From Eubacteriales bacterium (GTDB taxonomy: Bacteria; Bacillota; Clostridia; Oscillospirales; CAG-272), in assembly GCA_045644045.1 (NCBI GenBank), contig JAZRGD010000099.1:7126-71125 (forward strand): DNA of 64,000 nucleotides, read 5' to 3'. This document shows positions 1-62,398 of the stretch, in pieces. Made by a program: the position numbers and the translations under genes. A model generated the notes under the pieces. The model ran no database searches. It saw only the letters and a list, made by a program, of their open reading frames with translations, and was not told the DNA's origin. Each line of letters starts with the position of its first letter. Position 1 is the first letter of the stretch.

Positions 1-1569
1 GGCGAGGAAGGCGAAATTATGATGGATGGAATTAAATCTCTCCTCGCAGGCCAAGGTGGCGTTGCCGCCCGTCATATAGATGGCGGCACCGTCGCGACAC
101 AGCTCCATAAAATCGCTGATCCTGTTATAGGCCACCTCCGCGTTACGCACGTTGACGCTCTCGCCCGCCTCGTAATGAACGGTGCTCCAGCCCCAACCGC
201 CGTACAGACCCGAGTAGCCGCACCCCTTGATGGTGTTGCGAAGGATCTTCGCCCCATCGCACACGCCGAGATAAATGGCGGCGGCGTTGGGGTAGTCATA
301 GGCGATATGCTCCATATAGTTGTTGATGACCGAGACGGCGTAGCTCCTGTTTTCGGGAATGTCCCAACGGCGGGTGGGGTTGCCCACAGACACCGCCGAC
401 ATGGCAATATCCACGAAGATACAGTCACGCACCGCCGCCCGCAGGGTGCGGTCGCACATCTGGACGGCGTTACAGCCAACCCCACGGAACTCGCAATCCT
501 TCACCGTCAGGTTCTTTACGTTTTCGGTGACGATCGCGCCCTGGCGAAGCCTGTCGCCTTTCAGGTCGTTCAGTCTGCGCTCCACGTTGGAAAGCAGAGC
601 GTAATAGCCCTTGTCACAGGCATAGGAGGAGGAAACACCCGTAAAGACCAGCCCCTCCACCGTCACGTCCTTCATGCCCTTGATGACGAAGAGGGTGTCA
701 AGGGTGGGACGGCTGAGCTTATACCGCCAGCCAAGACCCAACTCATCTACGATGAAGTACAAAACGCCGCTCTTGTGGTCGTACACGAAGGTGTCCTTCT
801 CGGTAAGGAAGGCAAGGTCGTTACGGAAGAAGGTGATGCGATTCATGGTGTTGTTGCAGATATGGATGCCGTGAACGAAATAGGGAACGAAATTCTCATC
901 AAAGGTGACAAGGGCATAGGTCTCGCCCTCGATCTCTTTCGTATCCGACAGATCCACACCCGTCACGCGAAGGGTGTAATGCTCCCATTGCACGTACATA
1001 CACAGCTCGGTAGCGTCGCTCTCGCTTGCCGCCACCTGTTTTGCCGTCTCGATGGGAACGTAAAGGCCGCGTCTGTCTACGGGTGCTTCGAAATCGTTGC
1101 ACATCCAAGTGCCGTCGCCGTCGTAATGCCCCGCGCCGCGCTCCTCTGCCGTCAAGGCCTCCTTGTTGAGCCAGATGGGAGAGGTGGCCATCTTCAAGCG
1201 TTTGCCTTGGTAATACACGTCGCGGAAGCGAGGATACTCGCCGTTTTCATCCTTGGAAAGCTGGCACTTGAAATAAGGCTTGCCCTCCACCCTCTCGTAT
1301 TCCTCGGTGATGGTAACGGCAGAGCTGACCGTGGGGCGCATGCTCTTTGCCGCCGTAAGATGAAGCTTGACCCTTGCGAGGGCAGGCTCCTCCGCCGCAT
1401 CCAGAACGAAAGGCTCGGTGAGAGTGTAAACGCCATGATCTAACGCAACCGTCAGCTCCATGCCGCTTTCGGGGGCATTTCTTGCCGCCTCAAGGGTGCT
1501 TCCGCGCACGTCGGACAGAGAGGTGTGGGTCTCTTTCGTGGATTCATATTTCTTTACGCTGATAGCCAT
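1..1569 (-). CDS. Beta-helix array paralog P0 (right-handed parallel beta-helix repeat protein); first 523 codons only, 3' end lies beyond the window start
   Basis: Absent from the ORF track because there is no stop inside the window. My minus-strand translation from the ATG (rc of cat 1567-1569, SD AAAGGAGA 7 nt upstream) gives MAISVKKYESTKETHTSLSDV... and stays open to position 1. It carries the family motifs VQWEHYTLRV, IAYDYPNAAAIYLG, NTIKGCGYSG and CRDGAAIYMTGGN. Confidence 0.8.
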   Translation of the reverse strand, partial: MAISVKKYESTKETHTSLSDVRGSTLEAARNAPESGMELTVALDHGVYTLTEPFVLDAAEEPALARVKLHLTAAKSMRPTVSSAVTITEEYERVEGKPYFKCQLSKDENGEYPRFRDVYYQGKRLKMATSPIWLNKEALTAEERGAGHYDGDGTWMCNDFEAPVDRRGLYVPIETAKQVAASESDATELCMYVQWEHYTLRVTGVDLSDTKEIEGETYALVTFDENFVPYFVHGIHICNNTMNRITFFRNDLAFLTEKDTFVYDHKSGVLYFIVDELGLGWRYKLSRPTLDTLFVIKGMKDVTVEGLVFTGVSSSYACDKGYYALLSNVERRLNDLKGDRLRQGAIVTENVKNLTVKDCEFRGVGCNAVQMCDRTLRAAVRDCIFVDIAMSAVSVGNPTRRWDIPENRSYAVSVINNYMEHIAYDYPNAAAIYLGVCDGAKILRNTIKGCGYSGLYGGWGWSTVHYEAGESVNVRNAEVAYNRISDFMELCRDGAAIYMTGGNATLACEERFNSIHHNFAFLA

Positions 1570-1601: not shown

Positions 1602-3413
1602 TTATTCTGTCGCGCCTGCGCCGTCGGCGATCACCTTTGCCTCGGGGTGCTTTTCAAACAGCCCGTCAAGGCTTTCCTCTACCACAATGTTCTTGCAGAT
1701 CATATCGTTTCCGGGCCTGTGGTTGGAAGGATCGATGGGAGTAGTGGAATAAAAATTCTCTACCGTGTTGTGATGGGTGGATTGCGCCGGCACGTGATAC
1801 TGGGTAAAGAGGGGTAACAGACAGTTGTCAATGACGTTATCGTATACCGCGAAGTTGGAGCTGGCACCGTCGAGATAATAGCCGCGACGGAAGGAATGAC
1901 CGCCCTGATCCAGATAGGCATAGTTGTGATGGATGTAGTTGAAGCGGTCGGCGCACTTGACGGTGGCGTTGGCACCCGTCACGTAGATGGCGGCACCGTC
2001 TCTGCACACGTCCATAAAGTTGTGGATGCGGTTATAGGAAATATCCACCTCGCGCAGGTTGCAGTATTCGCCCGGCTCATACTGCACCATGCTCCAGCCG
2101 TATCCCGCCAAAATGCCGGAATAGCCACAGCCGTCAATGGTATTGTGAGAGACCTCCGCGCCGTCGCAGATGCCAAGGTAGATGGCGGCAGCGTTGGGGT
2201 AATCGTAGGCAATGTTCTCCAAGGTGTTGCCCTTGATCTTTACGTTATATTTGCGGTTGAGAGGATTGCTCCAAACGCGGTCGGGATTGCCCACGCAAAT
2301 ACCGCTCATGGCAATATCGTTGAACCGACAGTTTTCCACCGTAGCGCGAACAGAAGAGTCGCAAAGCTGCACGGCGTTGGTGCCAAGGAAACGGAAAAAG
2401 CAGTTTGAAACCTTAAAGTCGCGGACGTTGCTCGTAAGGATCGCCGCCTCGCGCAAGCGTCCTTTTTGCGCCTCACGGTTGCCGAGCTTGGCAAAATAGC
2501 TGCTCTCGCACACCTTGGTAGAGGTAAGGTCTTGGAAGCGCAAGCCTTCCACCGTCACGTTTTTCATGCCGTTGAACGTGAAATAATTAGAAAGATAGGC
2601 ATAGCCGAAATCTTTATTCTGAAAGCTTTCCGAATCGGGTATCAGGTACACCGTGCCCGTGTACCAGTCGTAAACGAAGGTGCCCGGCTCGGTGAGATAG
2701 GCAAGGTTGTTGGTAAAGAAGGTCTCGCGGTTTAGGATATTATTGGCGCGATGCACGCCCTTGACGAAGAACTCGTCAAACTCCTCGTAGAACTGAACGA
2801 GGGCATAGGTCTCACCGTTCACTTCCTTGGTAACAGTGAGGTCCACGTCCTTCACGCGAAGGATGTAATGCTCCCATTGCACGTACATACGAAGCTCCGT
2901 CGCGCCGATTCCGCTCTCCTTGATGCTTTTCGCGATTTCCATGGGCGCGTAAAGTCCCTCAAGTCCCTTCTCGCCGCTTCTCTCCTCGGGAAGCAGGGCG
3001 AAGGGGTTGCTCCAAACGGGAGACTTCGCCATCTTCATTCGCTTGCCGCCGCAAAAAAAGTCGTGAAAGAGGGGATAGTTCCCATTTTCATCCTTTTCAT
3101 ACTGATACTTGTAGTAGGGCTTGCCCTCCACGGGAGTCAGCTCTCTGCCCTTGACCTCCTTCGTGCTGGCCAGAATGACGTTGGCACCGGGGACGTTGCG
3201 AACGGTAAGGCTGATATTCTCAAGCTCGGGGTTCTCCTCGGTGGAAAACACGATGGGGGCGGCAGGACGGTAAACACCACTTAGCCGTACCTCTACGTGA
3301 AGGCGGTTTTTGGGGCTTGCCTCACGGGCAATGGCCAAGACCTGCTCGCGGGCCTCCTCTAACGTGTCCGCCGTCACGGCGGTGCGCTTGGTCTCTATTA
3401 TGTTGATTGACAT
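1602..3413 (-). CDS. Beta-helix array paralog P1 (603 aa), putative glycan-active right-handed beta-helix protein, no signal peptide
   Basis: ORF track. SD GGAGAG upstream of the ATG. Motifs YVQWEHYILRVKDVDL, NIAYDYPNAAAIYLG, HNTIDGCGYSGILAG, CRDGAAIYVTGAN, YYLDGASSNFAVYDNV. The repeated short hydrophobic/Asn/Gly rungs are typical of PbH1-type beta-helix repeats. The N-terminus is hydrophilic. Confidence 0.85.
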   Translation of the reverse strand: MSINIIETKRTAVTADTLEEAREQVLAIAREASPKNRLHVEVRLSGVYRPAAPIVFSTEENPELENISLTVRNVPGANVILASTKEVKGRELTPVEGKPYYKYQYEKDENGNYPLFHDFFCGGKRMKMAKSPVWSNPFALLPEERSGEKGLEGLYAPMEIAKSIKESGIGATELRMYVQWEHYILRVKDVDLTVTKEVNGETYALVQFYEEFDEFFVKGVHRANNILNRETFFTNNLAYLTEPGTFVYDWYTGTVYLIPDSESFQNKDFGYAYLSNYFTFNGMKNVTVEGLRFQDLTSTKVCESSYFAKLGNREAQKGRLREAAILTSNVRDFKVSNCFFRFLGTNAVQLCDSSVRATVENCRFNDIAMSGICVGNPDRVWSNPLNRKYNVKIKGNTLENIAYDYPNAAAIYLGICDGAEVSHNTIDGCGYSGILAGYGWSMVQYEPGEYCNLREVDISYNRIHNFMDVCRDGAAIYVTGANATVKCADRFNYIHHNYAYLDQGGHSFRRGYYLDGASSNFAVYDNVIDNCLLPLFTQYHVPAQSTHHNTVENFYSTTPIDPSNHRPGNDMICKNIVVEESLDGLFEKHPEAKVIADGAGATE

Positions 3414-3431
3414 AGCTTTCGTCTCTCCGTT

Positions 3432-5258
3432 TCAAATAAAGTTTTTTTGTCCCGCGCCGTCGGCAATGGCCTTTGCCTCGGGGTACTGATCAAACAGCTC
3501 TTCCAAGCTCTCGGTCACACAGCAGTTTTCCACATACACGTCGTGGTGCGGACGGTGGTCGCCCGGCTGCACGTAGGTACCGGAGTAGAAATTCTTTACC
3601 GTCACGTGATGCGTGTGCTGCGAGGAAATGTTGTACTGGGTATAGAGGGGCATTCCGCACTTGTCGGCCACGTTGTCCGTCAGCTCCCAGTTGGATGCCG
3701 AGCCGTCTAAATAATACCCCATGGTGTCACTGTTACCGAGAGTGTCTAAGTAGGTGAAATTATGATGGATGCGGTTGAAGCGTTCGGCGCAGTTTATGGT
3801 GCAGTTGGCACCCGTCACGTAGATAGCGCCGCCGTCTCTGCAACGTCTCATAAAGTTGTGCACGCGGTTGTAAGAGATCTCCACGTCTCTGAGGTTGACG
3901 CTCTCTCCCTTTTCAAAGTGTACGGGGCTGTATCCGTCTCCCGCGGCAATGCCCGAATAAGCGCAGCCGTGGATGGTGTTGTGAGAGATCACCGCCCCGT
4001 CTACGTAGCCGATGAAGATACAGGCGGTGCTGGGATATTGGTAAGCGATATCCTCGAAATAGTTATTGATCACGCGAACGTTATAGGTGCGACCGGAAGC
4101 ATCCTCCCAGCCGTTGCCCTCACGGTAATTTCCGATGGCGATAGCACCCATGGCAATGTCCTTAAACTCGCAGTTCGCGATCTCGGCAACAACGGTACGG
4201 TCACAGAACTGCACACCGTTAGAGCCGATATTTTGGAAGGAACAGCTTTTTATCGTCGTGTTGCGCGCGTTCATGCAAAGGATGGCCGCCTGACGGAGCT
4301 TGTAGCCGTTGCGGAACTCGCGGTTGGAAAGTGTGCCGAAATACCCCTTCTCGCACACGTAGCGAGAGGTCAGGCCCGAAAAGAGGATGCCCTCCACCGT
4401 CACGTTCTCCATACCCTTGAATACGAACAGGCTTTCCAGCTCCGTATACCCATACTGACAGGCGGCAATGCTTCTGTCGGCAGGCGGCATGACGTAGACC
4501 GTGCCCGAACGCCAGTCATAGGCGAAGCTGTCAGGATCGGTGAGAAAGGCGGGGTTGTTGATGAAATAGGTCTCGCGGTTTCGCGTATTATTGGCGCGAT
4601 GCACCCCGCAAACGAAATGCTCGTCGAATTCCTCGAAGAATTTCACGAGAGCATAGGGCTCTCCGTTTATCTCCTTGGTGACGGTGAGGTCCACGTCACG
4701 GACGCGCAGAATGAAATGCTGCCATTGCACGTATATGCGAAGCTCGGTCGTGCCCACGCCGTGCGCCTTCGCCGCCTCTGCCATCGCCATGGGGACGTAA
4801 AGACCCTCAAGCTTTTTTTCACCGCTTCTCTCCTCGGGGAGCATATCAAAAGGATTTCTCCAAATCGGGGAGCTTGCCATGGTCAGCCGCTTGTCGCCAC
4901 GGAAGAAATCGTGGAACTTGGGATAGGTGCCGTCCTCCTTGGCGGGGATCTGCGCCTTATAATAGGGCGTGCCCTCCACGGGAACAAAATCTTTTCCGGA
5001 AATAAAATTCAATCCGCTGACGGTTGGGCGCATTCTTTCCTGCGCCTTGATGGTCAAGCGAAGCTTTTTCAGCTCGGGGTTTTCCTCCGCATCCAAAACG
5101 AATGGCTCGGTGAGCGTGTATCTTCCATGCTCCAGCTCCACCGTGACGTCCGTCACACTCTCCACCCTTGCGGCAATATCCAAGAGCTGCTCCTTTACCT
5201 CGGCAAGACTTGTTTTTTGTGTTTTGATTTTTTCTACCTTTTCCGTTAAGATCGCCAT
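3432..5258 (-). CDS. Beta-helix array paralog P2 (608 aa)
   Basis: ORF track. Same architecture and motifs (YVQWQHFILRVRDVDL, HNTIHGCAYSGIAAG, CRDGGAIYVTGAN). Only 18 nt separate it from P1. No signal peptide. Confidence 0.85.
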   Translation of the reverse strand: MAILTEKVEKIKTQKTSLAEVKEQLLDIAARVESVTDVTVELEHGRYTLTEPFVLDAEENPELKKLRLTIKAQERMRPTVSGLNFISGKDFVPVEGTPYYKAQIPAKEDGTYPKFHDFFRGDKRLTMASSPIWRNPFDMLPEERSGEKKLEGLYVPMAMAEAAKAHGVGTTELRIYVQWQHFILRVRDVDLTVTKEINGEPYALVKFFEEFDEHFVCGVHRANNTRNRETYFINNPAFLTDPDSFAYDWRSGTVYVMPPADRSIAACQYGYTELESLFVFKGMENVTVEGILFSGLTSRYVCEKGYFGTLSNREFRNGYKLRQAAILCMNARNTTIKSCSFQNIGSNGVQFCDRTVVAEIANCEFKDIAMGAIAIGNYREGNGWEDASGRTYNVRVINNYFEDIAYQYPSTACIFIGYVDGAVISHNTIHGCAYSGIAAGDGYSPVHFEKGESVNLRDVEISYNRVHNFMRRCRDGGAIYVTGANCTINCAERFNRIHHNFTYLDTLGNSDTMGYYLDGSASNWELTDNVADKCGMPLYTQYNISSQHTHHVTVKNFYSGTYVQPGDHRPHHDVYVENCCVTESLEELFDQYPEAKAIADGAGQKNFI

Positions 5259-5280
5259 GTCGTATCCTTTCTTTGTTTAT

Positions 5281-5328
5281 TCGATGATTCGATGATTCGA
5301 TTATTTGATGATTCGATCATTTGATGCC
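5281..5328. repeat. 8-bp tandem repeat, about 6 units (plus strand TCGATGAT and variants), spanning the last codons of P3 and the P3-P2 spacer
   Basis: Read directly: tcgatgat tcgatgat tcgattat ttgatgat tcgatcat ttgatgcc. The P3 stop codon (rc of tca 5317-5319) lies inside unit 5. Confidence 0.8.
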
Positions 5329-7188
5329 CGTATCGCGGTAGCCTGCGCCGTCGGCGATTGTCTTGGCCTCGGGGTGCTTCTGATATAAGGCTTCACAGCC
5401 GTCCGCCTCAACGAAGCAGTTGTCAAGCAAAACGTCACGCCACGGAGTATGATTTCCCTCGCTTATGGGCGTTGTGGAATAAATATTCCAAGCCCTGTTA
5501 TGGTAGGTGAACTGCCCCGGTATGCTGTGCTGAATGAAGAGCGGCATCTGACAGTCGATGATTACGTTGTCGTACACGTCCCAGTTAGAGGCGGAGCCGT
5601 CCAGGTAATAACCGACTCTGTCGACGGGTCCCTCCTTCTCCAAAACGGCAAAATTGTGGTGAATGGTGTTAAAGCGAGGCGCGTGCTCCACCGTACAGTT
5701 GGCACCCGTCACGTAAACGGCGCCGCCGTCGCGGCAAACGTCCATAAAGTTCACCACGCGGTTATAGGCGATCTCCACGTCACGAAGATTGAACTTCTCG
5801 CCAAGCTGATACTTCACCTTGTGATAGGTATATCCGTCACCTGCGGCAATGCCCGAATAGGCACAGCCGTTGATGGTGTTGTACATGATCCTCGCCACGT
5901 CGCAAAAGCCGAGGAAGATAGCGGCGGAGCTGGGATAATCGTAAGCGATATCCTCAAGATAATTGTTCTCGATCATCACGTGATAGCTTCTGTTTTGCGC
6001 TTCATCACACGCGTATTCCCAAGCAATGAATTTTCCGTCACGATCCTCTCGATAGTTTCCGACGGAAATGCCGCACATAGCCACGCCCACGAAGCGACAG
6101 TCCTCGACGGTAGCCTTCACCGTGCTGTCGCGGAGCATCAGGCCGTTTCCGCCCAACTGCAAGAAATTACAGCTCTTCACCGTAAAATCACGAACGTCAG
6201 ACGTCAGAACGGCCGCGTGGCGAAGCTTGCCGGCGCGCTTCTCGCGGTTGGAAAGCGAGGCAAAATAACCCGTCTCACAGATGAAGGAGGAGGTAAGCCC
6301 CGTAAACGTCAGCCCCTCCAGCGTCACACCCGTCATTCCCTTGAAGACAAAGCAGTTCGAGAGTGTGCTATAGCCGTAGTTCTCTTTTGCCATATTGGAC
6401 GGATCGGTGGGCACCACGTACACAGCTCCCGACGTCCAGTCGTAAGCAAAGGTATCCGGCTCCGTCAAATAAGCGGGCGTGTTGGCGAAGAAGGTCTTGC
6501 ACCACCTGATATTGTTGTCAGAATGCACGCCGCGCACGAAATACTCATCGAACTCCTCGTAGAATTTCACCAGCGCGTAGGTCCTGTCTCTTACCACCAC
6601 GGTAGAGGACAAGTCCACGTCCTTCACGCGCAGGGTATACTGCTCCCACTGCACGAACATACGGAGCTGTGTAGCGCCGATGCCGCTTTTTTTGACAGCC
6701 TGGGCGATCTCGACGGGGGCGTAAAGCCCTTCCGCCTTCACCTCGCCGCTTCTCTGCTCGGGAAGCAGATGAAAGGGATGCCCCCAATCGGGAGAGATCG
6801 CCTTCTTCATACGAATGCCGCCATGGAAAAAGTCAAAAAACTTGGGATACTCTCCGTTTTCACTCTTTTCGAGCTGATACTTGTAATATGGCGTCCCCTC
6901 CACAGGAGTAAACTCCGCGCCCGAAACGTGGCGAAGTCCGCTAATGACGGGGCGCATAGAGGGCTTCGCCTTGACGGTCAGACGGATATTTTTGAGGGCG
7001 GGATCTTCCTCTGTGGAAAACACCAGCGGCTCGGTGACGGAATATCCACCCTGATCCAACTCAGCCACCACCTCGATGACGTTATCCTCCGAGGCGGTCT
7101 CTGCCACGGCCAGAATATGCTCTCTGATTTCGGCAAGAGTCGCTCTTTGCTCGACGCTCGCCACTCTCTTGGTTAAGGTAATTGCCAT
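5317..7188 (-). CDS. Beta-helix array paralog P3 (623 aa)
   Basis: ORF track. Motifs FVQWEQYTLRVKDVDL, YNTINGCAYSGIAAG, CRDGGAVYVTGAN. Its N-terminal 46 aa match P5 at every position but one (V/T). Confidence 0.85.
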   Translation of the reverse strand: MAITLTKRVASVEQRATLAEIREHILAVAETASEDNVIEVVAELDQGGYSVTEPLVFSTEEDPALKNIRLTVKAKPSMRPVISGLRHVSGAEFTPVEGTPYYKYQLEKSENGEYPKFFDFFHGGIRMKKAISPDWGHPFHLLPEQRSGEVKAEGLYAPVEIAQAVKKSGIGATQLRMFVQWEQYTLRVKDVDLSSTVVVRDRTYALVKFYEEFDEYFVRGVHSDNNIRWCKTFFANTPAYLTEPDTFAYDWTSGAVYVVPTDPSNMAKENYGYSTLSNCFVFKGMTGVTLEGLTFTGLTSSFICETGYFASLSNREKRAGKLRHAAVLTSDVRDFTVKSCNFLQLGGNGLMLRDSTVKATVEDCRFVGVAMCGISVGNYREDRDGKFIAWEYACDEAQNRSYHVMIENNYLEDIAYDYPSSAAIFLGFCDVARIMYNTINGCAYSGIAAGDGYTYHKVKYQLGEKFNLRDVEIAYNRVVNFMDVCRDGGAVYVTGANCTVEHAPRFNTIHHNFAVLEKEGPVDRVGYYLDGSASNWDVYDNVIIDCQMPLFIQHSIPGQFTYHNRAWNIYSTTPISEGNHTPWRDVLLDNCFVEADGCEALYQKHPEAKTIADGAGYRDTGIK

Positions 7189-7201
7189 TTCTCTTTTCTC
7201 T

Positions 7202-7238
7202 CCGCGCCCTCATCCGAGGGCGCGGCTCTTTCGTTTTT
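7202..7238 (+). promoter_or_regulatory. GC-rich intercistronic hairpin (CCGCGCCCTC-atcc-GAGGGCGCGG) with a T-rich tail on the plus strand, between P4 and P3
   Basis: 10-bp perfect stem read directly. The T-rich tract (ctctttcgttttt) follows it only on the plus (antisense) strand. On the mRNA strand the P3 SD follows it directly. Confidence 0.6.
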
Positions 7239-7241
7239 GCT

Positions 7242-9086
7242 TTAATCTACCGTAAGGCCTACTTCTCTGTAGCCCGCCGCATCGGCAATGGCCTTGGCCG
7301 CAGGATATTTTTCGTACAAAGCGTCAAGGCTCTCCTCCACGGCATAGAAGCCGAGAAGGGTGTCGTGATGAGGCTTGTGGTTGCCCTCCGGATCCACCCA
7401 CGTGGTGGAGTAGAAATTCCATACGCGGTTGTGGTGCGTATACTGATCGGGCACATGATACTGGGTGAACAGAGGAAGGGCGCTGTTGTCCATCACGTTG
7501 TCATATACGTCCCAGTTGGAAGCGGCGCCGTCAAGGTAGTAACCGCGACGGTCATGGTCCTTTTGCTCCTCCAAGGCGGCGAAATTATGGTGAATGGAAT
7601 TGAAGCGCTTTTCGTAACTCACTATGGCATTGGCACCCGTCACATAAATGGCGCCGCCATCCCGGTTCACATCCATGAAATTCAAAATACGGTTGTAAGA
7701 GATCTCCACATCCCGCAGATTGATCCGCTCGCCCGGCTCAAAGCCTACTTTGCTATAGCCGTCACCTGCGGAAATGCCCGAATAGGCACAGCTCTTGATG
7801 GTGTTGTGGGAAATGAGTGCCCCATCACAATACCCAAGCCAAACGCAAGCGGTGCTGGGATAATCGTAAGCGATATTTTCAAAATAGTTGTTGATCAGCT
7901 TGATGCCAAAGGTCTGATCTCCGTAATTCTGCCACTTGCAGCCATAGCGGTAATTGCCTGCAGAGAAGCCCCCCATAGCAATATTGCGGAAGGTGCATCC
8001 CGTTACCGAGGCTCTTACAGTGCGGTCGCAGATCTGCACGCCATTGCCGCCAAGTCCCTCAAAGGAGCAATCCTTGATCACAAGGTCGCACACATCAGAG
8101 GTCAGAATCGCGGCGTCGCGCAATCTGCCCATACGGCTCTCGTAGTTGGACAGACGGCCGAAATAGCCTGTGTCGCAAATGAAGGAGGAGGTAAGGCCCA
8201 CAAAGGTGATGCCCTCCACCGTCACATTCCGCATTCCCTTGATCACCAGCATGTTGGAAAGCTCGGTGTAGCCGTATCTCGTTCTGGTAAAGCTCTCGGG
8301 ATTTTTGGGAATCACATAAAGAGCACCCGACTGCCAATCGTAGGCATAGGTGTTTGGCTCGGTCAAAAAAGCAGGCGTGTTGATGAAGAAGGTCTCTCTG
8401 TTCCCCACATTGTTGCAGAAATGCATACCGCGCACAAAGAACTCGTCAAACTCCTCAAAGAAGGTCACCAGCGCGTAAGGCTCGCCCCCTACCTCCTTGG
8501 TGGTATTCAAGTCAATATCCTTAATGCGAAGCACATAATGCTCCCATTGCACGTACATATGCAGTTGGGCAGAGCCAATGCCCTGCTCCTTCACCGCCTT
8601 AGCCTGCTCGTAAGGAACATACAAACCCTCCAGTGTCTTTTCGCCCCGTCTTTCCTCGGGCAAAAGAGGGAAGGGATTGCGCCACACAGGCGAGGCGGCC
8701 ATTTTCAGCCGCTCAGGCCCACGGAAGAAATCATGGAATTTCGGATACTCCCCGTTTTCCTTCTTTTCGAATTGGTACTTGTAGTAGGGCGTGCCCTCCA
8801 CAGGAACAAAGTCCGATCCCATAATGGGCTTGAGAGGACTGATCGTGGGACGCATGCTCTCCTTGGCCTTGATGGTCAGACGAATGTTGGCGAGCTCCGG
8901 GTGTTCCTCCGCGGAAAACACCAAAGGCTCCTCCAAAAAGTAGTTTGCCTGATCCAAAACCACCTCAACGGCCAGATTCTTTTCGGGCGTGGCCTCGGCT
9001 GCCACAGAAAGCACATATTGCTTTAAGTCTGCCAGCGTCTCAATGCTGGTGCAGGTTGCCTCAATTCTTTTCAGTGCAATTGCCAT
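7242..9086 (-). CDS. Beta-helix array paralog P4 (614 aa)
   Basis: ORF track. Motifs YVQWEHYVLRIKDIDL, HNTIKSCAYSGISAG, NRDGGAIYVTGAN. The C-terminal ...ESLDALYEKYPAAKAIADAAGYREVGLTVD is nearly identical to P6. Confidence 0.85.
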   Translation of the reverse strand: MAIALKRIEATCTSIETLADLKQYVLSVAAEATPEKNLAVEVVLDQANYFLEEPLVFSAEEHPELANIRLTIKAKESMRPTISPLKPIMGSDFVPVEGTPYYKYQFEKKENGEYPKFHDFFRGPERLKMAASPVWRNPFPLLPEERRGEKTLEGLYVPYEQAKAVKEQGIGSAQLHMYVQWEHYVLRIKDIDLNTTKEVGGEPYALVTFFEEFDEFFVRGMHFCNNVGNRETFFINTPAFLTEPNTYAYDWQSGALYVIPKNPESFTRTRYGYTELSNMLVIKGMRNVTVEGITFVGLTSSFICDTGYFGRLSNYESRMGRLRDAAILTSDVCDLVIKDCSFEGLGGNGVQICDRTVRASVTGCTFRNIAMGGFSAGNYRYGCKWQNYGDQTFGIKLINNYFENIAYDYPSTACVWLGYCDGALISHNTIKSCAYSGISAGDGYSKVGFEPGERINLRDVEISYNRILNFMDVNRDGGAIYVTGANAIVSYEKRFNSIHHNFAALEEQKDHDRRGYYLDGAASNWDVYDNVMDNSALPLFTQYHVPDQYTHHNRVWNFYSTTWVDPEGNHKPHHDTLLGFYAVEESLDALYEKYPAAKAIADAAGYREVGLTVD

Positions 9087-9128
9087 TTTGCTATACCTTT
9101 CCTTTCGCAGTGTGCTTTACTGTTTGGA

Positions 9129-10982
9129 TCAATTGGTTTTTACGCCGGTATCCCGATAGCCTGCGCCGTCGGCGATCTCCTTTGCGTGGGGATGCTTTTC
9201 GTACAAGGTATCCAGATCCTTTTCCACCGCCCAGAAGCCCAAGAGCGTGTCGTGGTTGGGCTTGTGATTGCCTTGGGGCTCAATGTCCGTGGTGGAATAA
9301 ATGTTCCACAAACGGTTGTGATGGGTATACTGCCCCGGTACGTGATACTGAGTAAAGAGGGGAAGCTGGCAGTTGTCGATCACATTGTCGTACACATCCC
9401 AGTTGGAGGCAGAGCCGTCAAGGTAATAGCCCCGTCTGTCCCGATGTCCGCTTTCGGTCAGGAAGGCGGCGTTGTGGTGAATGGAATTGAAGCGAGGGGC
9501 GTAATCCTTGGTGCAGTTTGCGCCCGTTACGTAGATGGCCGCGCCGTCGCGGCACACGTCCATAAAGTCACGGATGTCGTTGTAGGCGATCTCTACGTTT
9601 CTCAGATTGACCTTCTCACCGGGATAATAGCTCACCTGACTGTATCCGTCGCCCGCCGCGATGGCGGAGTAGCCACAGCCCCGCACGGTGTTGTGAGACA
9701 ACTCTCCCCCGTCGCAGAAGCCGAGGAAGATACAGGCGGTGCTGGGATAATCGTAGGCGATATGCTCAAAATAGTTGTTTCGCACCTTGACGAAGAAGGT
9801 CTCCTCGCCCTGCTTCCAGCCGTTGCCCACCTTGCCGTCGGTGCGGTAGTTGCCGATAGCGATGGCACTCATCGCGGTGTCCTTGAACACGCAGTCCTCT
9901 ATTTTCAGGCCCACCGTCTTATCGCAGACCTGAACACCGTTACAGCCCAGGGCGCGGAAGCAGCAGCGCTTCACCGTCATATTTCTCATGTCCGAGGTGA
10001 GAATGGCGGCGTGGCGCAGTCTGCCCGCCCGCATCTCGTAGTTGGACAGGCGACCGAAGTAGCCCGTGTCGCAGGCGTAGGGAGAGGTCAGACCCACGAA
10101 GTCGATGCCCTCCACCGTCACGTCCTTCATCCCCTTGAACACAAGGTAGTTCGACAAGGTGGTGTAGCCAAAGGAATGTCTTGCCATATTGGCGGCGTCG
10201 GCGGGCAAAACATACACCGTCCCCGCCTTCCAATCGTAAACGAAGGTATCGGGCTCGGTGAGAAAAGCTAAGTTGTTGACGAAGAAGGTCTCACGGTTTC
10301 CGATATTGTTGGCTCTGTGCATACCGCGGACGAAGAACTCGTCAAACTCCGCGTTGAGCTTCACCAAGACGTAGGGCTCGCCGTCCACGTCCATGGTGGT
10401 ATCCGGGTCCACGTCGGTGACGCACAGAATGTAATGCTCCCATTGCACGAACATACGGAGCTGGGTAGCACCGATGCCGCTTTCCTTGATCCTTTCCGCA
10501 ATTCCCACGGGCGCGTAGAGGCCGTCCATCTTCATTTCTCCCTTGCGATGCTCAGGAAGAAGGGCGACGGGGTTGCGCCAGACGGGCGACTTGGCCATGG
10601 TCAGCCGCTTGTCACCGAGGAAAAAGTCACGGAATTTCGGATACTCGCCGTTTTCGTCCTTTTCAAACTGATACTTGTAGTAGGGCATACCCTCCACGGG
10701 GGTAAACTCCGCTCCCGAAATGCGGCGAATACCGCTGACGGTAGGGCGCATAGAGGGCTTTGCCTTGACGGTCAGACGGATGTTTTTGAGAGCGGGGTTT
10801 TCCTCTGCGGAAAACACCAGCGGCTCATCGACGAAATATTTGCCCTGATCCAGCTCCGCCACCACCTCGATGACGTTATCCTCCGAGGCGGTCTCTGCCA
10901 CGGCCAGAATATGCTCTCTGATCTCGGCAAGAGTCGCTCTTTGCTCGGTGCTTGCCACTCTTTTGGTTAAGGTAATTGCCAT
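9129..10982 (-). CDS. Beta-helix array paralog P5 (617 aa)
   Basis: ORF track. Motifs FVQWEHYILCVTDVD, HNTVRGCGYSAIAAG, CRDGAAIYVTGANCTKDYA. The N-terminus is shared with P3. Confidence 0.85.
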   Translation of the reverse strand: MAITLTKRVASTEQRATLAEIREHILAVAETASEDNVIEVVAELDQGKYFVDEPLVFSAEENPALKNIRLTVKAKPSMRPTVSGIRRISGAEFTPVEGMPYYKYQFEKDENGEYPKFRDFFLGDKRLTMAKSPVWRNPVALLPEHRKGEMKMDGLYAPVGIAERIKESGIGATQLRMFVQWEHYILCVTDVDPDTTMDVDGEPYVLVKLNAEFDEFFVRGMHRANNIGNRETFFVNNLAFLTEPDTFVYDWKAGTVYVLPADAANMARHSFGYTTLSNYLVFKGMKDVTVEGIDFVGLTSPYACDTGYFGRLSNYEMRAGRLRHAAILTSDMRNMTVKRCCFRALGCNGVQVCDKTVGLKIEDCVFKDTAMSAIAIGNYRTDGKVGNGWKQGEETFFVKVRNNYFEHIAYDYPSTACIFLGFCDGGELSHNTVRGCGYSAIAAGDGYSQVSYYPGEKVNLRNVEIAYNDIRDFMDVCRDGAAIYVTGANCTKDYAPRFNSIHHNAAFLTESGHRDRRGYYLDGSASNWDVYDNVIDNCQLPLFTQYHVPGQYTHHNRLWNIYSTTDIEPQGNHKPNHDTLLGFWAVEKDLDTLYEKHPHAKEIADGAGYRDTGVKTN

Positions 10983-10996
10983 TTCTCTTTCCTCCT

Positions 10997-11032
10997 CGCG
11001 CCCTCATCCGAGGGCGCGGCTCTTTCGTTTTT
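10997..11032 (+). promoter_or_regulatory. Second copy of the same intercistronic hairpin (CGCGCCCTC-atcc-GAGGGCGCG) between P6 and P5
   Basis: Near-identical sequence to 7202-7238 in the same position relative to the flanking genes. Confidence 0.6.
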
Positions 11033-11035
11033 GCT

Positions 11036-12883
11036 TTAATCTACCGTAAGGACTACTTCTCTGTAGCCCGCCGCGTCGGCAATGGCCTTGGCCGCAGGAT
11101 ATTTTTCGTACAAAGCGTCAAGGCTCTCCTCTACGGCGTAGAAGCCGAGAATGTTGTCTTGGTTCGGCTTGTGGTTGCCGCTTGGCTCAATGTCGGTGGT
11201 GGAATAGAAGTTCCGGGTGTGGACATGGTGGGTATACTGGCTTGGCACGTGATACTGGGTAAACAGGGGCATCGCGCAGTTGTCGATGACGTTGTCGTAC
11301 ACGTCCCAGTTAGAGGCCGAGCCGTCAAAGTAGTAACCGCGACGGTCGCGGTGTCCGATGTCCGTAAGAAGGGCAATATTGTCATGCACCGAGTTGAAGC
11401 GAACAGCATAGTCCTTGGTGCAGTTGGCCCCCGTCACGTAGATGGCGGCGCCGTCACGGCAGACGTCCATAAAATCACGGACGTCGTTGTAGGCGATCTC
11501 CACGTTTCTGAGATTGACCTTCTCACCCGGCTCGAAATCTACCTGACTATAACCGTCTCCCGCGGCAATACCCGAATAGGCACAGCCCTTGATGGTATTG
11601 TGAGAGATCTCACCCACGTCGCAGAAGCAGAGGAAGATGGCGGGGGAGCTGGGATAATCGTAAGCGATATTTTCAAGATAATTGTTGACGATCTTGACGT
11701 TATAGTTCTGATTTTGGGGATCTGACCAACCCCCGACACCCACGCGGTAGTTGCCCACCGAAATACCGCACATGGCCACGTTCACGAAGCGGCAGTCCCG
11801 CACCGTGGCGCTCACGGTGTGGTCGCAAAGCATCACGCCGTTGCCGCCCAGATCAAGGAAGGAGCAGCCCTTCACCGTAAAGCCTCTGGTATCCGAGGCA
11901 ACGATGGGAGCGTGGCGCAGCTTGCCCGCGCGGAACTCGCGGTTGGCAAGCGTGCCGAAATAGCCCGTGTCGCACACGTAGGGAGAGGTGAAGCCGGCAA
12001 AGGCGATCCCTTCCACCGTCACGTCCTTCATGCCCTTGAAGATAAAGGCGTTGGCAAGGGTGGTATAGCCAAACCTCATTCTCGCCATCTTTTCGGGATC
12101 GGAAGGGACTACGTAGATGGTACCTGTAAACCAGTCGTAGACAAAAGTATTAGGCTCGGTAAGGTAAGCAAGGTTGTTGACAAGGAAGGTCTCGCGGTTT
12201 CCAATGTTGTTGGCCTCATGTACCCCCTTGACGAATTGCTCGTCAAACTCCTCGTAGAACCGAACGAGGGCATAGGTCTCGCCCTTCACCTCGGCGGTGA
12301 CCGACAGATCCACTTCCTTCACGCGAAGGATATAATGCTGCCATTGCACGTAAATACGGAGCTGGGTGGCACCGACGTCCTTCCCCGCCACCTTTTCGAC
12401 AATATCGATGGGGGCGTACAAGCCCTCCACCTTCTCCTCTCCGCTTCTTTGGGCAGGGAGCAGAGGGAAGGGGTTACGCCACATGGGAGACCTTGCCATC
12501 TTCATGCGCTTCGTGCCGCAGAAAACGTCGTAGAACTTGGGGTACTCACCCGCTTCGTTCTTTTCCAGCTGATATTTGTAATAGGGAGTGCCCTCTACAG
12601 GGGTGAAGTCTGCGCCCGAAATAGATTTCAAAGGACAGACGGTGGGATACATGGAGGGCTTCGCCTTGATGGTCAGGCGGATATTTTGGAGGGCGGGGTT
12701 CTCCTCGGCGGAGAACACCAGGGGCGCGTCCAGGGTGTAGCTTCCCCTGTCAAGCTCCACCGTCACCTCGATCTTATTCTCGGGCGTAGCACCCTCTGCC
12801 AGAGCGAGAACCTTGTCAAGAAGCCCGTCAAGGGCATCGAGCGTCTCGGTCGTACTCGTTTTTTTCGTGATTGCAATAGCCAT
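11036..12883 (-). CDS. Beta-helix array paralog P6 (615 aa), promoter-proximal first gene of the array
   Basis: ORF track. SD AGGAGAGG upstream of the ATG. Motifs YVQWQHYILRVKEVDL, HNTIKGCAYSGIAAG, CRDGAAIYVTGANCTKDYA. Confidence 0.85.
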   Translation of the reverse strand: MAIAITKKTSTTETLDALDGLLDKVLALAEGATPENKIEVTVELDRGSYTLDAPLVFSAEENPALQNIRLTIKAKPSMYPTVCPLKSISGADFTPVEGTPYYKYQLEKNEAGEYPKFYDVFCGTKRMKMARSPMWRNPFPLLPAQRSGEEKVEGLYAPIDIVEKVAGKDVGATQLRIYVQWQHYILRVKEVDLSVTAEVKGETYALVRFYEEFDEQFVKGVHEANNIGNRETFLVNNLAYLTEPNTFVYDWFTGTIYVVPSDPEKMARMRFGYTTLANAFIFKGMKDVTVEGIAFAGFTSPYVCDTGYFGTLANREFRAGKLRHAPIVASDTRGFTVKGCSFLDLGGNGVMLCDHTVSATVRDCRFVNVAMCGISVGNYRVGVGGWSDPQNQNYNVKIVNNYLENIAYDYPSSPAIFLCFCDVGEISHNTIKGCAYSGIAAGDGYSQVDFEPGEKVNLRNVEIAYNDVRDFMDVCRDGAAIYVTGANCTKDYAVRFNSVHDNIALLTDIGHRDRRGYYFDGSASNWDVYDNVIDNCAMPLFTQYHVPSQYTHHVHTRNFYSTTDIEPSGNHKPNQDNILGFYAVEESLDALYEKYPAAKAIADAAGYREVVLTVD

Positions 12884-12955
12884 AGTGCTTTTCCTCTCCT
12901 GTGTGTGCGCGCGTGCGCGTAATAAACAAAAAGCAGCGAAGGCGCAAAAAGCGGA

Positions 12956-13075
12956 CTACGCAAGAAAAAGGCAACGGGCGGGGGGCTCTTGCCATAGTCT
13001 CGCGAAGTCTCCTTGAGCCTTCACTGCTTGAGGGGTGCGGTGATACCGCACTCGTCGTCTTATCGGGTTTCGCAT
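12956..13075 (-). CDS. Candidate leader sORF (39 codons: MRNPIRRRVRYHRTPQAVKAQGDFARLWQEPPARCLFLA) in the array leader
   Basis: The ATG (rc of cat 13073-13075) is preceded by AAGGAG (rc of 13082-13087) at 6 nt. The frame reads through a weak hairpin plus U-tract (GGCAA-N14-TTGCC-TTTTT) and stops at TAG 12956-12958. There is no homology evidence, so this is speculative. Confidence 0.25.
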   Translation of the reverse strand: MRNPIRRRVRYHRTPQAVKAQGDFARLWQEPPARCLFLA

Positions 13076-13154
13076 ACCTATCTCCTTTCGAAAGCGCGCA
13101 GCACTTTCCGCGGGAAGCGTCGGTTTTTCGGTCGGGACACGCCCAACCGTGGGT

Positions 13155-13183
13155 ATTATATCAAAAAAAACAGATATTGTCAA
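13155..13183 (-). promoter_or_regulatory. Sigma-A-type promoter of the beta-helix array (TTGACA-17 nt-TATAAT)
   Basis: The reverse complement reads TTGACAatatctgttttttttgaTATAAT, a perfect consensus at both hexamers with optimal spacing, ~265 nt upstream of the P6 ATG. Confidence 0.65.
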
Positions 13184-13294
13184 TGAAAATCGAGAATTTT
13201 CTGCAATTTTTTTTGCAAATTTTCGGTCATTTTTCGCCCTTTTTTCTTTCTCGCCCTCTTCTTTTGACTTTTCTGCTTTTTCTCTCCCCCGCCC

Positions 13295-60881: not shown

Positions 60882-62351
60882 ATGCAAGAATTTTTACTCA
60901 ACATCGTGGCAAACATCAACACCTACCTCTCGAACTACGTTCTGCTCGTTCTTTTGGTAGGCACCGGTCTCTACTTCTCCATCCGTACCCGCTTCGTTCA
61001 GGTCCGTTGCTTCGGCGAGGGCATGAAGAACGTATTCGGAAATATTAAGCTTAAGGGCGGAAGCAAGGAAGGCGGCATCTCCTCCTTCCAGGCACTTGCC
61101 ACCGCCGTTGCCGCGCAGGTCGGTACGGGTAACATCGTCGGTGCCTGCGGCGCCATCCTCATCGGTGGTCCCGGTGCCATCTTCTGGATGTGGGTCATCG
61201 CCTTCCTCGGCATGGCTACCATCTACGCCGAGGCGATCCTCGCGCAGAAGACCCGCGTGACCAACCCCGACGGCTCTGTGGAGGGCGGTCCCGTTTACTA
61301 CATCAAGACAGCGTTTAAGGGCAAGTTCGGCAAGTTCCTCGCCGCTTTCTTCTCCGTGGCCGCTATCATCGCCCTCGGCTTCGTAGGCGCAATGGTACAG
61401 TCCAACTCCATCGCCTCCAACTTCGCCAACGTATTCAGCTCCTTGGGCATTAACGCCTCCTTCACCATCGGCAACACCGAGTTCAACTGGATCATGCTCA
61501 TCGTCGGTGCTATCGTGGCCGCCTTCGCGGGCTTCGTTCTGCTGGGCGGTGTTAAGCGTTTGGCCTCCGTTACCGAGAAGCTGGTTCCCCTGATGGCTAT
61601 CATATATCTGGTTGGCGGCCTTCTCGTCCTTTGCATCAACATCACCAGCGTACCCAAGGCCTTCGGCATGATCTTCAAGTATGCCTTCGCGCCTCAGGCT
61701 CTCGTCGGCGGTGCCTTCGGTGCGGCCATCTCCAAGGCCATCACCCAGGGTGCTAAGCGCGGCCTGTTCTCCAACGAGGCAGGTATGGGTTCTACCCCTC
61801 ACGCCCACGCTCTTGCTGACGTAAAGAAGCCCCACGACCAAGGCACCTCCGCCATGATCGGCGTGTTCATCGACACCTTCGTCGTGCTGACCATGACCGC
61901 TCTCGTGGTCATCTCCACCCTCTACTGCAACGGCACCATCACCCCCGAGACCTATGCGGCAGGCAACGCGGGCATTTCCAACGCCACCATGGCGCAGAGT
62001 GCCTTCGCCTTCACCTTCAGCAAGCTCTTCGGTGCTACGGCAGGTACGGTCATCGGTAACATCTTCGTTGCCGTCTGTCTCCTGTTCTTCGCCTTCTCCA
62101 CCATCCTCAGCTGGAACTACTTCGGTAAGGTAAACTTCACCAACCTCTTCGGCAAGAAGTCCGTGACGGTTTACTCCGTTCTGGCTACCCTCTTCGTATT
62201 CCTCGGCTCCGCCTTCAAGAACGACCTGGTTTGGGAGCTGACCGATATGTTCAATAACCTGATGGTCATCCCCAACGTCATCGCCCTCTGGGCACTCGCA
62301 AGCATGGTGGTCGTTGCCGCTAAGAACGCCAAGAAGAACACGCTCGAATAA
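60882..62351 (+). CDS. Alanine/glycine:cation symporter (AGCS family)
   Basis: GGISSFQALATAVAAQVGTGNIVG... and GLFSNEAGMGS motifs, ~11 TM segments, glycine riboswitch upstream. Confidence 0.9.
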   Translation: MQEFLLNIVANINTYLSNYVLLVLLVGTGLYFSIRTRFVQVRCFGEGMKNVFGNIKLKGGSKEGGISSFQALATAVAAQVGTGNIVGACGAILIGGPGAIFWMWVIAFLGMATIYAEAILAQKTRVTNPDGSVEGGPVYYIKTAFKGKFGKFLAAFFSVAAIIALGFVGAMVQSNSIASNFANVFSSLGINASFTIGNTEFNWIMLIVGAIVAAFAGFVLLGGVKRLASVTEKLVPLMAIIYLVGGLLVLCINITSVPKAFGMIFKYAFAPQALVGGAFGAAISKAITQGAKRGLFSNEAGMGSTPHAHALADVKKPHDQGTSAMIGVFIDTFVVLTMTALVVISTLYCNGTITPETYAAGNAGISNATMAQSAFAFTFSKLFGATAGTVIGNIFVAVCLLFFAFSTILSWNYFGKVNFTNLFGKKSVTVYSVLATLFVFLGSAFKNDLVWELTDMFNNLMVIPNVIALWALASMVVVAAKNAKKNTLE

Positions 62352-62363
62352 AAAAGAAAAGCA

Positions 62364-62398
62364 AAAGGACTGTGCCACGGCACAGTCCTTTTTTTTAA
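62364..62398. terminator. Bidirectional rho-independent terminator (symporter / dnaJ)
   Basis: AAAAGGACTGTGCC-acg-GCACAGTCCTTTTTTTT. Confidence 0.85.

Follow-up and report, generated by a model that had tools for sequence, protein, structure and literature searches.

Organisation and predicted products of the gene array

The analysed window (the whole 64-kb stretch of DNA) derives from an uncultured gut Clostridia bacterium and carries a tandem array of at least seven co-oriented genes. The array members are complete open reading frames of 603-623 aa, each with its own ribosome-binding site (RBS) and with one promoter for all of them. Since a perfect promoter lies upstream of G6, the array probably represents a single operon. 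The promoter and the genes, with the names P3 to P6 of an earlier preliminary description in brackets, are as follows.

13155..13183, minus strand: perfect sigma-70-type promoter, TTGACA-17-TATAAT with TG, upstream of G6; recognised from the sequence and conserved in relatives
11036..12883, minus strand: G6 (P6), 615 aa, first array gene; 3' end likely donor (trees, C-terminus comparison)
9129..10982, minus strand: G5 (P5), 617 aa, native 5' end, putative donor (trees)
7242..9086, minus strand: G4 (P4), 614 aa, 3' end apparently overwritten; body orthologous to gene 2 of the related locus L071 (dN/dS ~0.03 between the two)
5317..7188, minus strand: G3 (P3), 623 aa, GH141-like beta-helix, 5' end apparently overwritten (open reading frame, tract, trees)
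3432-5258, minus strand: G2, outside the tract events
1602-3413, minus strand: G1, outside the tract events
1-1569, minus strand: G0, cut by the window edge, outside the tract events

The array proteins are predicted to be GH141-like glycosidases. Compared with BT1002, the founder of GH141, they gave E = 6.3e-5 with phmmer and E = 3.1e-24 in a profile search, and Foldseek aligned the query model (pLDDT 88) with the BT1002 structure (PDB 5MQP) at E = 4.5e-25 and a TM of 0.72. Pfam returned only the generic Beta_helix PF13229, and an NCBIfam search of the array proteins gave no match. The catalytic Asp pair of BT1002 is formed by D523 and D564, 41 positions apart (PMC10154630, PMC12786026). This pair appears to be conserved in the array, as the invariant D479 and D522 (G5 numbering) align with Asp indices 528 and 569 of the deposited BT1002 chain, which are also 41 apart, a numbering offset of 5 residues being assumed. 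Like BT1002, the array proteins are predicted to form a right-handed beta-helix with an inserted beta-sandwich; unlike BT1002, with which they share only ~15% sequence identity, they have no N-terminal signal peptide visible in their sequences. The array also departs from known GH141 in copy number, since a review gives two GH141 genes per genome at most (PMC10154630), whereas here at least 7-10 tandem copies are present per genome.

A near-identical tract at two gene junctions

Global alignment of the two-gene units, in which high-identity tracts were located by maximal-segment scoring, revealed a maximal segment (6950-7357 versus 10744-11151) with 381 of 408 nt matching (93.4%), at a fixed offset of 3794 nt and with 0 indels, against a background of ~65-70% nucleotide identity in the same gene pairs outside it. 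A plain blastn self-search for tracts of at least 82% identity was dropped, because its HSPs ran on into this background. The alignment confirms that a near-identical gene-junction segment is present twice, as the preliminary description had reported; of the two intervals given there, 6955-7335 holds, whereas the partner interval 10738-11118 was ~11 nt out of register, the true partner being 10749-11129. The two copies mismatch at 27 positions, and their longest uninterrupted match is 65 nt. A stricter core (7064-7337) reaches 264/274 matches, or 96.4%. The upstream edge of the tract is sharp, and positions 7338-7357 are probably just the conserved LLGFYAVE motif, while identity on the G3 side tapers off through a shoulder of 87% (6950-7063) and then to ~80%. 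The resemblance noted earlier between the protein termini was likewise borne out: G3 and G5 are identical at 46 of their first 47 residues, and G4 and G6 at 29 of their last 30. In full length, G3/G5 is the most similar pair in the window (66% aa).

6950..7357, minus strand: recipient tract copy, comprising the ~30 last G4 codons, the 53-nt G4>G3 spacer and the first 41-80 G3 codons (alignment boundaries, dS, break in G4 orthologues)
10744..11151, minus strand: putative donor tract copy, comprising the G6 3' end, the 53-nt G6>G5 spacer and the G5 5' end (offset 3794, trees, nearest C-termini)
7203..7224, minus strand: GC-rich stem-loop CGCGCCCTC-GGAT-GAGGGCGCG in the G4>G3 spacer, just upstream of the G3 RBS (-23.2 kcal/mol, z = -4.9)
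10997..11018, minus strand: second stem-loop copy, in the G6>G5 spacer (-20.1 kcal/mol)

The two 53-nt spacers differ at three positions only (7197, 7201 and 7202) and are the sole homologous spacers within the array, the remaining ones being 18-58 nt long and unrelated. The stem-loop, with its GC stem of 9-10 bp, occurs in two copies in 64 kb against 0 expected by chance; the 64-kb window holds no further copy, the stem-loop had no Rfam match, and an exact scan of metagenomes for the hairpin spacer yielded 0 matches. It was also considered as a canonical terminator of the operon and rejected, as the sense strand carries no U-tract. On the best reading, the stem-loop and the RBS travelled with the tract copy.

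Age, phylogeny and probable direction of copying

Synonymous divergence sets the tract apart from the genes in which it lies. The dS amounted to 0.109 in the G3/G5 core and 0.121 in the G4/G6 tail, compared with 1.40 (G3/G5) and 1.50 (G4/G6) in the remainder of the same genes and 0.37 in the 87% shoulder. Values of ~0.11-0.12 inside versus 1.3-1.5 outside identify the tract as a recent copy and not as a product of selective constraint, and the nearly equal dS of its halves indicates the same age for both, as one continuous patch would give. Nor can constraint account for the identity: in other pairs the N-terminus diverges more than any other part of these proteins (dN 0.56-0.90). The recombination test proposed in the preliminary description, run as a GENECONV-style permutation of polymorphic sites, was significant for both halves (global P < 1/2000 for the G3/G5 5' fragment and for the G4/G6 3' fragment). 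By relative dating, the tract (dS ~0.11) is well below the age of the split from the L071 lineage (dS 0.76) and about equal to the divergence of strain L070 (dS 0.07-0.11).

Neighbour-joining trees with bootstrap, run separately on the gene bodies, the first 81 codons and the last 40 codons, were incongruent, the tract grouping differently from the sequence on either side of it. The gene bodies fell into the groups {G5, L3_3, L1_6} (100%), {G6, L3_1, L1_4, L4_2} (82%) and {G3, L4_1, L4_3} (82%), and on these trees the bodies of G3, G4, G5 and G6 belong to separate orthologue groups older than the split from the related genomes. In the tract, by contrast, G3 paired with G5 (100%, first 81 codons) and G4 with G6 (100%, last 40 codons), the latter pair not being placed with the G6 group. 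The G3+G5 pair was sister to L3_3, the G5 orthologue (87%), with which the native 5' end of G5 groups.

The comparison of the locus with related genomes, also proposed earlier, revealed recipient-type G4 orthologues that do not carry the tract, and relatives with mosaics of their own. G4 is ~88% identical at nucleotide level along the gene to its closest orthologue (L071 gene 2), but over ~7357-7280 identity falls from 93% to 68, 45 and 38%. The same break, with the tract absent, was found in the G4 orthologues of L067 and L069, and the nucleotide alignment places the switch point in the LLGFYAVE block common to the family. We infer that copying proceeded from the G6|G5 junction to the G4|G3 junction. 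The nearest non-self C-termini to the G4/G6 tail belong to members of the G6 group, hinting that the 3' end of G6 may have served as donor; against this, the tail of G6 is only loosely similar to its orthologue tail (63-68% nt, 25/38 aa), and the G4+G6 pair lies outside the G6 group in the 3' tree.

Probable ectopic gene conversion and alternative explanations

In our view, with a probability of about 85%, the tract was left by a single, relatively recent ectopic (inter-paralogue) gene conversion of the G4|G3 junction by the G6|G5 junction. In the course of repair by homologous recombination, the first junction would have paired with the second, two units (3794 bp) out of register, on either the same or the sister chromosome, and ~270-400 bp would then have been transferred non-reciprocally. 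The upstream end would have resolved within ~26 nt common to nearly all members (the LLGFYAVE codons, ~7335-7358), and the downstream end would tail off somewhere from codon 42 to codon ~80 of G3, within the conserved stretch PLVFS...NIRLT.KAKPSMRP. G4 would thereby have lost its native C-terminal tail and acquired the last 30 residues of G6, the native G4>G3 spacer would have been swapped for the G6>G5 spacer with its stem-loop and RBS, and G3 would have received the first 41 or more residues of G5. Presumably this was a single event, mediated by RecA-type homologous recombination, with G6 to G4 as its direction in the 3' part and without effect on catalysis. The graded shoulder on the G3 side could alternatively reflect several events or patchy mismatch repair instead of one clean patch, and the patch could also stem from a third copy not seen here or from DNA of another strain.

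Gene conversion between array members, one of the two possibilities raised in the preliminary description, is thus supported by the dS of the tract, the trees and the break in the orthologues. That it is ongoing can be maintained loosely, in the sense that the dS of ~0.11 is like close-strain divergence (0.07-0.11) and that relatives have patches of their own. The suggestion that such exchange generates chimeric specificities finds no support in the data: only 30 residues at the C-terminus and 41-80 at the N-terminus were exchanged, whereas the conserved catalytic Asp pair sits at positions 479 and 522 of G5.

Among the alternatives, the patch may have been imported from another strain or species with a G6|G5-type junction, so that the 4-7% difference between the copies would measure donor divergence and not elapsed time; we regard this as improbable. 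Array content varies even among close strains: L070, the only strain-level relative found, is 97% identical to the window over G2-G1, ends 172 nt upstream of G2 and has a different paralogue 3' end there, and the G4 orthologues of different lineages bear three different tails. Nevertheless, nothing in the data matches the patch better than the genome's own junction at a distance of 3.8 kb, external sequences reach at most ~77%, and the result would be an ectopic conversion patch either way.

Slightly less probable still is an artefact of metagenome assembly, i.e., a strain-chimeric contig or a graph mis-join placing a variant G6|G5 junction between G4 and G3. The window derives from a MAG contig and the tract is covered by no independent assembly. 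With G4 as query, neither GTDB genomes nor JGI metagenomes yielded a strain-level relative spanning the tract, and neither G5 nor G0 had an exact protein match in the contig index. The junctions are moreover linked by perfect matches as long as 65 nt. However, all reading frames are intact, identity decays gradually on one side, and the 27 differing positions are compatible neither with a collapse nor with a duplicated path. Moreover, the analogous mosaics of relatives recur at 99.9-100% identity in the paired independent assemblies L071/L072, L067/L068, L001/L002 and L004/L005.

The second possibility of the preliminary description, a G6-G5 unit duplicated into G4-G3 and then diverged everywhere but at a junction held by selection or a low local mutation rate, fits the in-register copies exactly two units apart and the 66% of G3/G5, but is scarcely credible, as the pairs are no closer outside the tract (middle-region dS 1.32 for G3-G5 versus 1.17 for G3-G6, and 1.55 for both G4-G6 and G4-G5), the gene bodies belong to separate orthologue groups common to other genomes, synonymous sites and the non-coding spacer are near-identical too, beyond the reach of protein-level selection, and the G4 orthologues of three other genomes have no tract.

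Relation to known systems and remodelling of the array

Conversion between bacterial paralogues and partial concerted evolution are known from rRNA operons, tufA/tufB and the outer-membrane-protein paralogues of Helicobacter pylori. The tract is an event of this known kind, ordinary recombination between gene copies, and calls for no new mechanism. It shares with bacterial ectopic conversion the short and presumably non-reciprocal patch, the low dS, the incongruence of patch and flanks, the ends in conserved stretches and the same orientation of paralogues on one replicon; it differs in spanning a gene junction (tail, spacer with hairpin and RBS, head) and not one gene. As the paralogues are otherwise synonymously saturated, array-wide homogenisation is absent, unlike in concerted evolution. 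Prokaryote-wide gene-conversion surveys and work on PE/PPE-type conversions in Mycobacterium tuberculosis provide further context (PMC6053082, PMC8022953, PMC12046097, PMC13061034). A likeness to unequal crossing-over in tandem arrays is found in the relatives, whose corresponding ribF-flanked locus holds between 3 and at least 10 copies, and in L71_1, a G6/G5 chimeric gene; a single crossover, however, would leave 3.8 kb identical, whereas the tract measures ~0.3-0.4 kb. In the programmed, cassette-based variation of Neisseria pilE/pilS and Borrelia vlsE, segments are moved non-reciprocally between related sequences at one locus, as was presumably the case here. Unlike these systems, the array has neither silent partial cassettes nor a single expression site, and the tract is old enough for differences of 4-7%. 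Variation of the diversity-generating or cassette type was rejected, the members being all intact, probably co-transcribed and devoid of signal peptides.

Local windows of excess identity were ~9-fold commoner within the same array (48/8591) than between arrays (32/51644), and 7 of the 12 within-array tracts lay in terminal regions. L71_2 shows an independent replacement of its 3' end from a neighbour. A family-profile scan of GTDB genomes contributed relatives of at most 48% identity only, herbivore-gut Clostridia/Oscillospiraceae MAGs, usable for taxonomy and not for event dating. The three tails of G4 orthologues in three lineages, broken at the same motif each time, together with the terminal position of 7 of 12 tracts, hint that gene termini and spacer might form an exchangeable junction module with LLGFYAVE and PLVFS...NIRLT.KAKPSMRP as recurrent recombination anchors. 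We put this forward tentatively and consider it rather unlikely; if true, tails, hairpin/RBS and N-terminal caps would be traded repeatedly between paralogues and between strains, which would change the expression of the operon and perhaps the properties of the termini.

The tract offers a clean, datable ectopic conversion in an uncultured gut anaerobe, crossing a gene boundary together with regulatory sequence, within an expanded GH141-like array that conversion, gene chimerism and changes in copy number are actively reshaping. Phylogenies and orthology of the array paralogues need to be worked out segment by segment, and short-read assemblies of such arrays need checking at read level. More interest probably attaches to the array as a whole and to its conserved structured leader than to the tract.

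A further near-identical patch had been described between G5 and G6:

9498..9620, minus strand: internal patch, G5 side (aa 455-495), conserved active-site region with the invariant Asp479 (permutation, pS)
11405-11527, minus strand: internal patch, G6 side, partner of G5 aa 455-495

The patch is real in the protein (40/41 aa identical), but it does not serve as evidence of exchange and was rejected as a conversion tract, since the permutation gave a global P = 0.71 and the synonymous difference is ordinary (pS 0.46 versus a median of 0.57 across all pairs). Judged from its sequence, the patch corresponds to the active-site motif that is conserved in the predicted GH141-like beta-helix glycosidase.

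Array organization and protein family

Paralogous genes designated G6 to G0, all in the same orientation on the minus strand, form a tandem array across the left-hand 13 kb of the window:

11036-12883, - strand: G6, array paralogue
9129-10982, - strand: G5, array paralogue
7242-9086, - strand: G4, array paralogue
5317-7188, - strand: G3, array paralogue
3432-5258, - strand: G2, array paralogue
1602-3413, - strand: G1, array paralogue
1-1569, - strand: G0, array paralogue, truncated by the window edge

The array proteins, 603-623 aa in length, share 47-66% pairwise identity, and all of them match the Pfam family Beta_helix (PF13229). As a perfect sigma-70 promoter lies upstream of G6 (13183-13155) and each gene is preceded by its own Shine-Dalgarno sequence, the array G6-G0 most likely constitutes one operon.

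Among proteins of solved structure, the best relative is the founding member of family GH141, BT1002 (5MQP): E-values were 6.3e-5 by phmmer, 3.1e-24 with the family profile and 4.5e-25 by Foldseek, the last with TM 0.72. Two aspartates invariant in 24 family members, D479 and D522 of G5, align with an Asp pair 41 positions apart in the BT1002 chain, which, if chain index and native numbering are taken to differ by 5 residues, would match D523 and D564, residues described as essential in BT1002 (PMC10154630; PMC12786026). No signal peptide was recognized in the sequences of the array proteins, which are best called GH141-like. Such a tandem expansion is unusual, because GH141 genes have been reviewed as never exceeding two per genome (PMC10154630).

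Long plus-strand ORFs (474-614 aa) lie opposite the array genes at 19-1443, 3762-5249, 5449-7176 and 7182-9026. Comparable sense/antisense pairs occur at unrelated genes of the window, e.g., 60882-62351 and 60894-62378, and these ORFs look like a genome-wide effect of codon usage, not overlapping genes.

A near-identical tract at two gene junctions

Aligned as two-gene units, G4-G3 and G6-G5 show ~65-70% identity except in one block. With match/mismatch scoring, the maximal segment (6950-7357 versus 10744-11151) is identical at 381/408 positions, with the copies 3794 nt apart throughout and free of indels, which bears out the duplicated gene-junction segment of the preliminary description; the peptides quoted there for the termini of G3-G6 are correct, and the second pair of coordinates was ~11 nt off register. 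A harsher penalty confines the core to 7064-7337 (264/274, 96.4%). In gene orientation the upstream edge is abrupt, and the downstream edge declines stepwise from 96% to 87% (6950-7063, the shoulder on the G3 side) and ~80% (6845-6949) before reaching background. The 53-nt spacers of the G4-to-G3 and G6-to-G5 junctions are homologous; the remaining four internal spacers (18-58 nt) are unrelated.

A GENECONV-style test took the fragment richest in matches at polymorphic sites and set it against 2000 column permutations; global P was < 1/2000 both for codons 2-80 of G3/G5 and for codons 610-642 of G4/G6. A recombination test of the kind proposed earlier was thus significant for both halves of the tract; comparable significance was found in no other gene pair. 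Nei-Gojobori estimates showed a corresponding depression of synonymous divergence.

Table. Synonymous divergence (dS) inside and outside the tract
G3/G5 core (codons 1-41): 0.109
G4/G6 tail (last 38 codons): 0.121
G3/G5 shoulder: 0.365
Rest of G3/G5: 1.40
Rest of G4/G6: 1.50

Because dS is low and, in all other pairs, no part of the protein is less conserved than its N-terminal 41 codons (dN 0.56-0.90), the near-identity of the tract stems from a shared origin in the recent past and is not due to selection. That dS is equal in both halves fits one continuous patch, and the graded shoulder may record more than one event.

Gene conversion versus duplication

Syntenic arrays of related uncultured Clostridia, all adjoining ribF-prmA-rsmE, were compared with that of the window:

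L001: at least 10 copies
L003: at least 7 copies
L004/L005: 3 copies
L073: 2 intact copies and a fragmented third
L071/L072, L067/L068, L069: contig fragments

Gene-body neighbor-joining (NJ) trees recovered the cross-genome orthologue groups {G5,L3_3,L1_6} (100%), {G6,L3_1,L1_4,L4_2} (82%), {G3,L4_1,L4_3} (82%), {G2,L3_4,L1_1} (100%) and {G1,L3_5,L1_7} (90%), where L3_3 denotes gene 3 of L003 and so on. The paralogues are therefore older than the compared lineages, and neither G3/G5 nor G4/G6 are sister genes. Middle-region dS likewise does not bring the partners together (G3-G5 1.32 vs G3-G6 1.17; G4-G6 1.55 vs G4-G5 1.55), whereas the tract-region NJ trees flip topology and unite G3 with G5 and G4 with G6, each at 100%. 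The ancestral two-gene duplication with uneven divergence that had been offered as one explanation is therefore rejected, and transfer of a patch is required. Gene conversion, the other reading offered, is supported by this tree conflict and by the depressed dS, and the tract is a well-documented instance of this known process.

The transferred patch takes in three pieces: the C-terminal 30 residues of the upstream protein, the entire spacer, and the N-terminal 41-80 residues of the downstream one. An AlphaFold model (pLDDT 88, pTM 0.91) shows the 30 residues as two short helices at the C-terminus (H590-596 and H598-606). As the swapped termini are far in sequence from the catalytic Asp pair, the earlier suggestion of chimeric specificities finds no support. 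The spacer contains a hairpin, present within the window at these two junctions only, whose GC stem of 9-10 bp carries a GGAU loop (folding energy -20 to -23 kcal/mol; z-score -3.3 to -4.9). The RBS follows it immediately, and the hairpin may act in mRNA processing or stability. It has no Rfam match and no sense-strand U-tract, and a T-rich tail lies on the antisense strand; comparably strong hairpins in the relatives occur mostly at array ends.

Direction and age of the transfer

The 5' tree places the G5 orthologue L3_3 as sister to the G3+G5 clade (87%), and G5 is no farther from L3_3 in its first 80 codons (dS 0.77) than in the rest of the gene (dS 1.04). The 5' part of the tract is thus native to G5, and G3 was the recipient. 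The opposite half was traced through the G4 orthologues P0101 (L071 gene 2, same 90% cluster), P0008 (L067, 82.5% aa) and P0014 (L069, 75.8% aa). G4 and L071 gene 2 share ~82-98% nucleotide identity along the gene, which falls from 93% to 68, 45 and 38% at ~7357-7220, exactly where G4-G6 identity climbs to 90-98%. The orthologous proteins match G4 through ...HDTLLGFYAVE/GFYAME and then differ, continuing as ADRETLFAKHPEAKEIYENSGCKH in L067, SDLETLFEKYPAAKEIYENSGCKF in L069 and KDLDTLYEKHPHAKEIADGAGYRDTGVKQDKTDW in L071; because they carry these other tails, G4 also appears to be a recipient. The nucleotide alignment places the switch point within a ~26-nt block common to all (LLGFYAVE codons, 7335-7358), a place where the exchange could readily have been resolved.

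Besides G4 and G6, the C-termini nearest to the tract tail belong to G6-group members (25/38 identical), and a native origin of the G6 tail is moderately supported. As the simplest consistent reading we infer the G6-G5 junction as donor and the G4-G3 junction as recipient; a third-party or foreign copy may instead have been the donor.

The tract dS of ~0.11 is far below that to the lineages of L071 (0.76), L003 (0.9-1.2) and L067 (1.2) and near that of L070 (Logan ERR11711984), the closest strain found (97% nt over G2-G1, dS 0.07-0.11), and the conversion event is therefore placed roughly at species or strain depth.

In L070 (1-198, versus window 5259-5420) the gene upstream of G2 ends ...KDFETLLAKHPNARSIVEGAGYRDTGIK and looks like L3_3, the orthologue of G5 (82% nt), rather than G3, and the spacer upstream of G2 measures 26 nt versus 58 nt in the window. 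Close strains therefore differ in array content or mosaic structure. The G3-to-G2 spacer of the window (5259-5316) carries a short tandem repeat of AATCATCG-like units (...CGAATCATCAAATAATCGAATCATCGAATCATCGAAT...) that is absent from the corresponding L070 spacer.

Mosaics in related arrays

An excess-identity scan of 33 genes from eight arrays (window threshold z >= 3 and >= 85%) detected 48/8591 same-array versus 32/51644 between-array windows, a ~9-fold enrichment that is descriptive only, as the windows overlap. The L1_1/L1_7 tract reaches 97% over ~106 nt between genes six apart; other tracts link L3_3/L3_5, L4_2/L4_3, L3_1/L3_3 and L71_1/L71_2 (3' end), and seven of the 12 are terminal. 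The relatives' mosaics recur at 99.9-100% identity in paired independent assemblies.

The 41-residue patch shared internally by G5 and G6 (G5 aa 455-495), which contains an invariant RDGAAIYVTGAN motif, was indeed a near-unchanged protein stretch, as described earlier, and remains almost unchanged in G5 and G6 orthologues of other genomes. Its origin by exchange was rejected: at synonymous sites the two genes differ about as much as usual (pS 0.46 against a median of 0.57; pN 0.01), global P is 0.71 in the GENECONV-style permutation, and the patch reflects purifying selection.

Gene 1 of L071 (229-2073) is chimeric, with codons 1-480 resembling the G6 group and codon 481 to the end 87-91% identical to G5, as expected from unequal crossover deleting one unit. 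Since this switch lies near the position of the internal patch, a crossover in that lineage seems to have used the patch as its site. At its 3' end, L071 gene 2 (2117-3973, the G4 orthologue) has undergone a separate conversion: its final ~30 codons match gene 1 at 90% identity.

Among relatives the array locus is conserved beside ribF, varies from 3 to at least 10 copies and ends at a peptidase M20 gene in L004/L005 and L073. The third paralogue of L073 (7763-9575), broken into ORFs of 85 and 461 aa with 169 nt between them, is probably a decaying copy.

Leader of the array

A ~265-nt leader lies between the perfect promoter and G6 and is strongly conserved in seven lineages with coding dS of 0.7 to >1:

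12884-13190, - strand: leader in the window
L071 1-228: counterpart
L001 3946-4215: counterpart
L003 3800-4069: counterpart
L004 4853-5122: counterpart
L073 3742-4011: counterpart
L067 389-658: counterpart

The leader has no Rfam match. The RNAalifold prediction has 57 pairs, with compensatory changes in 12, and includes a terminator-like element (GGCAAGAGC...TTGCC-TTTTTCTT). A 39-codon ORF that has a strong RBS (MRNPIRRRVRYHRTPQAVKAQGDFARLWQEPPARCLFLA) lies in the leader as well. The leader is a candidate for control of the array, as an attenuator, in riboswitch-like fashion or through a small basic protein.
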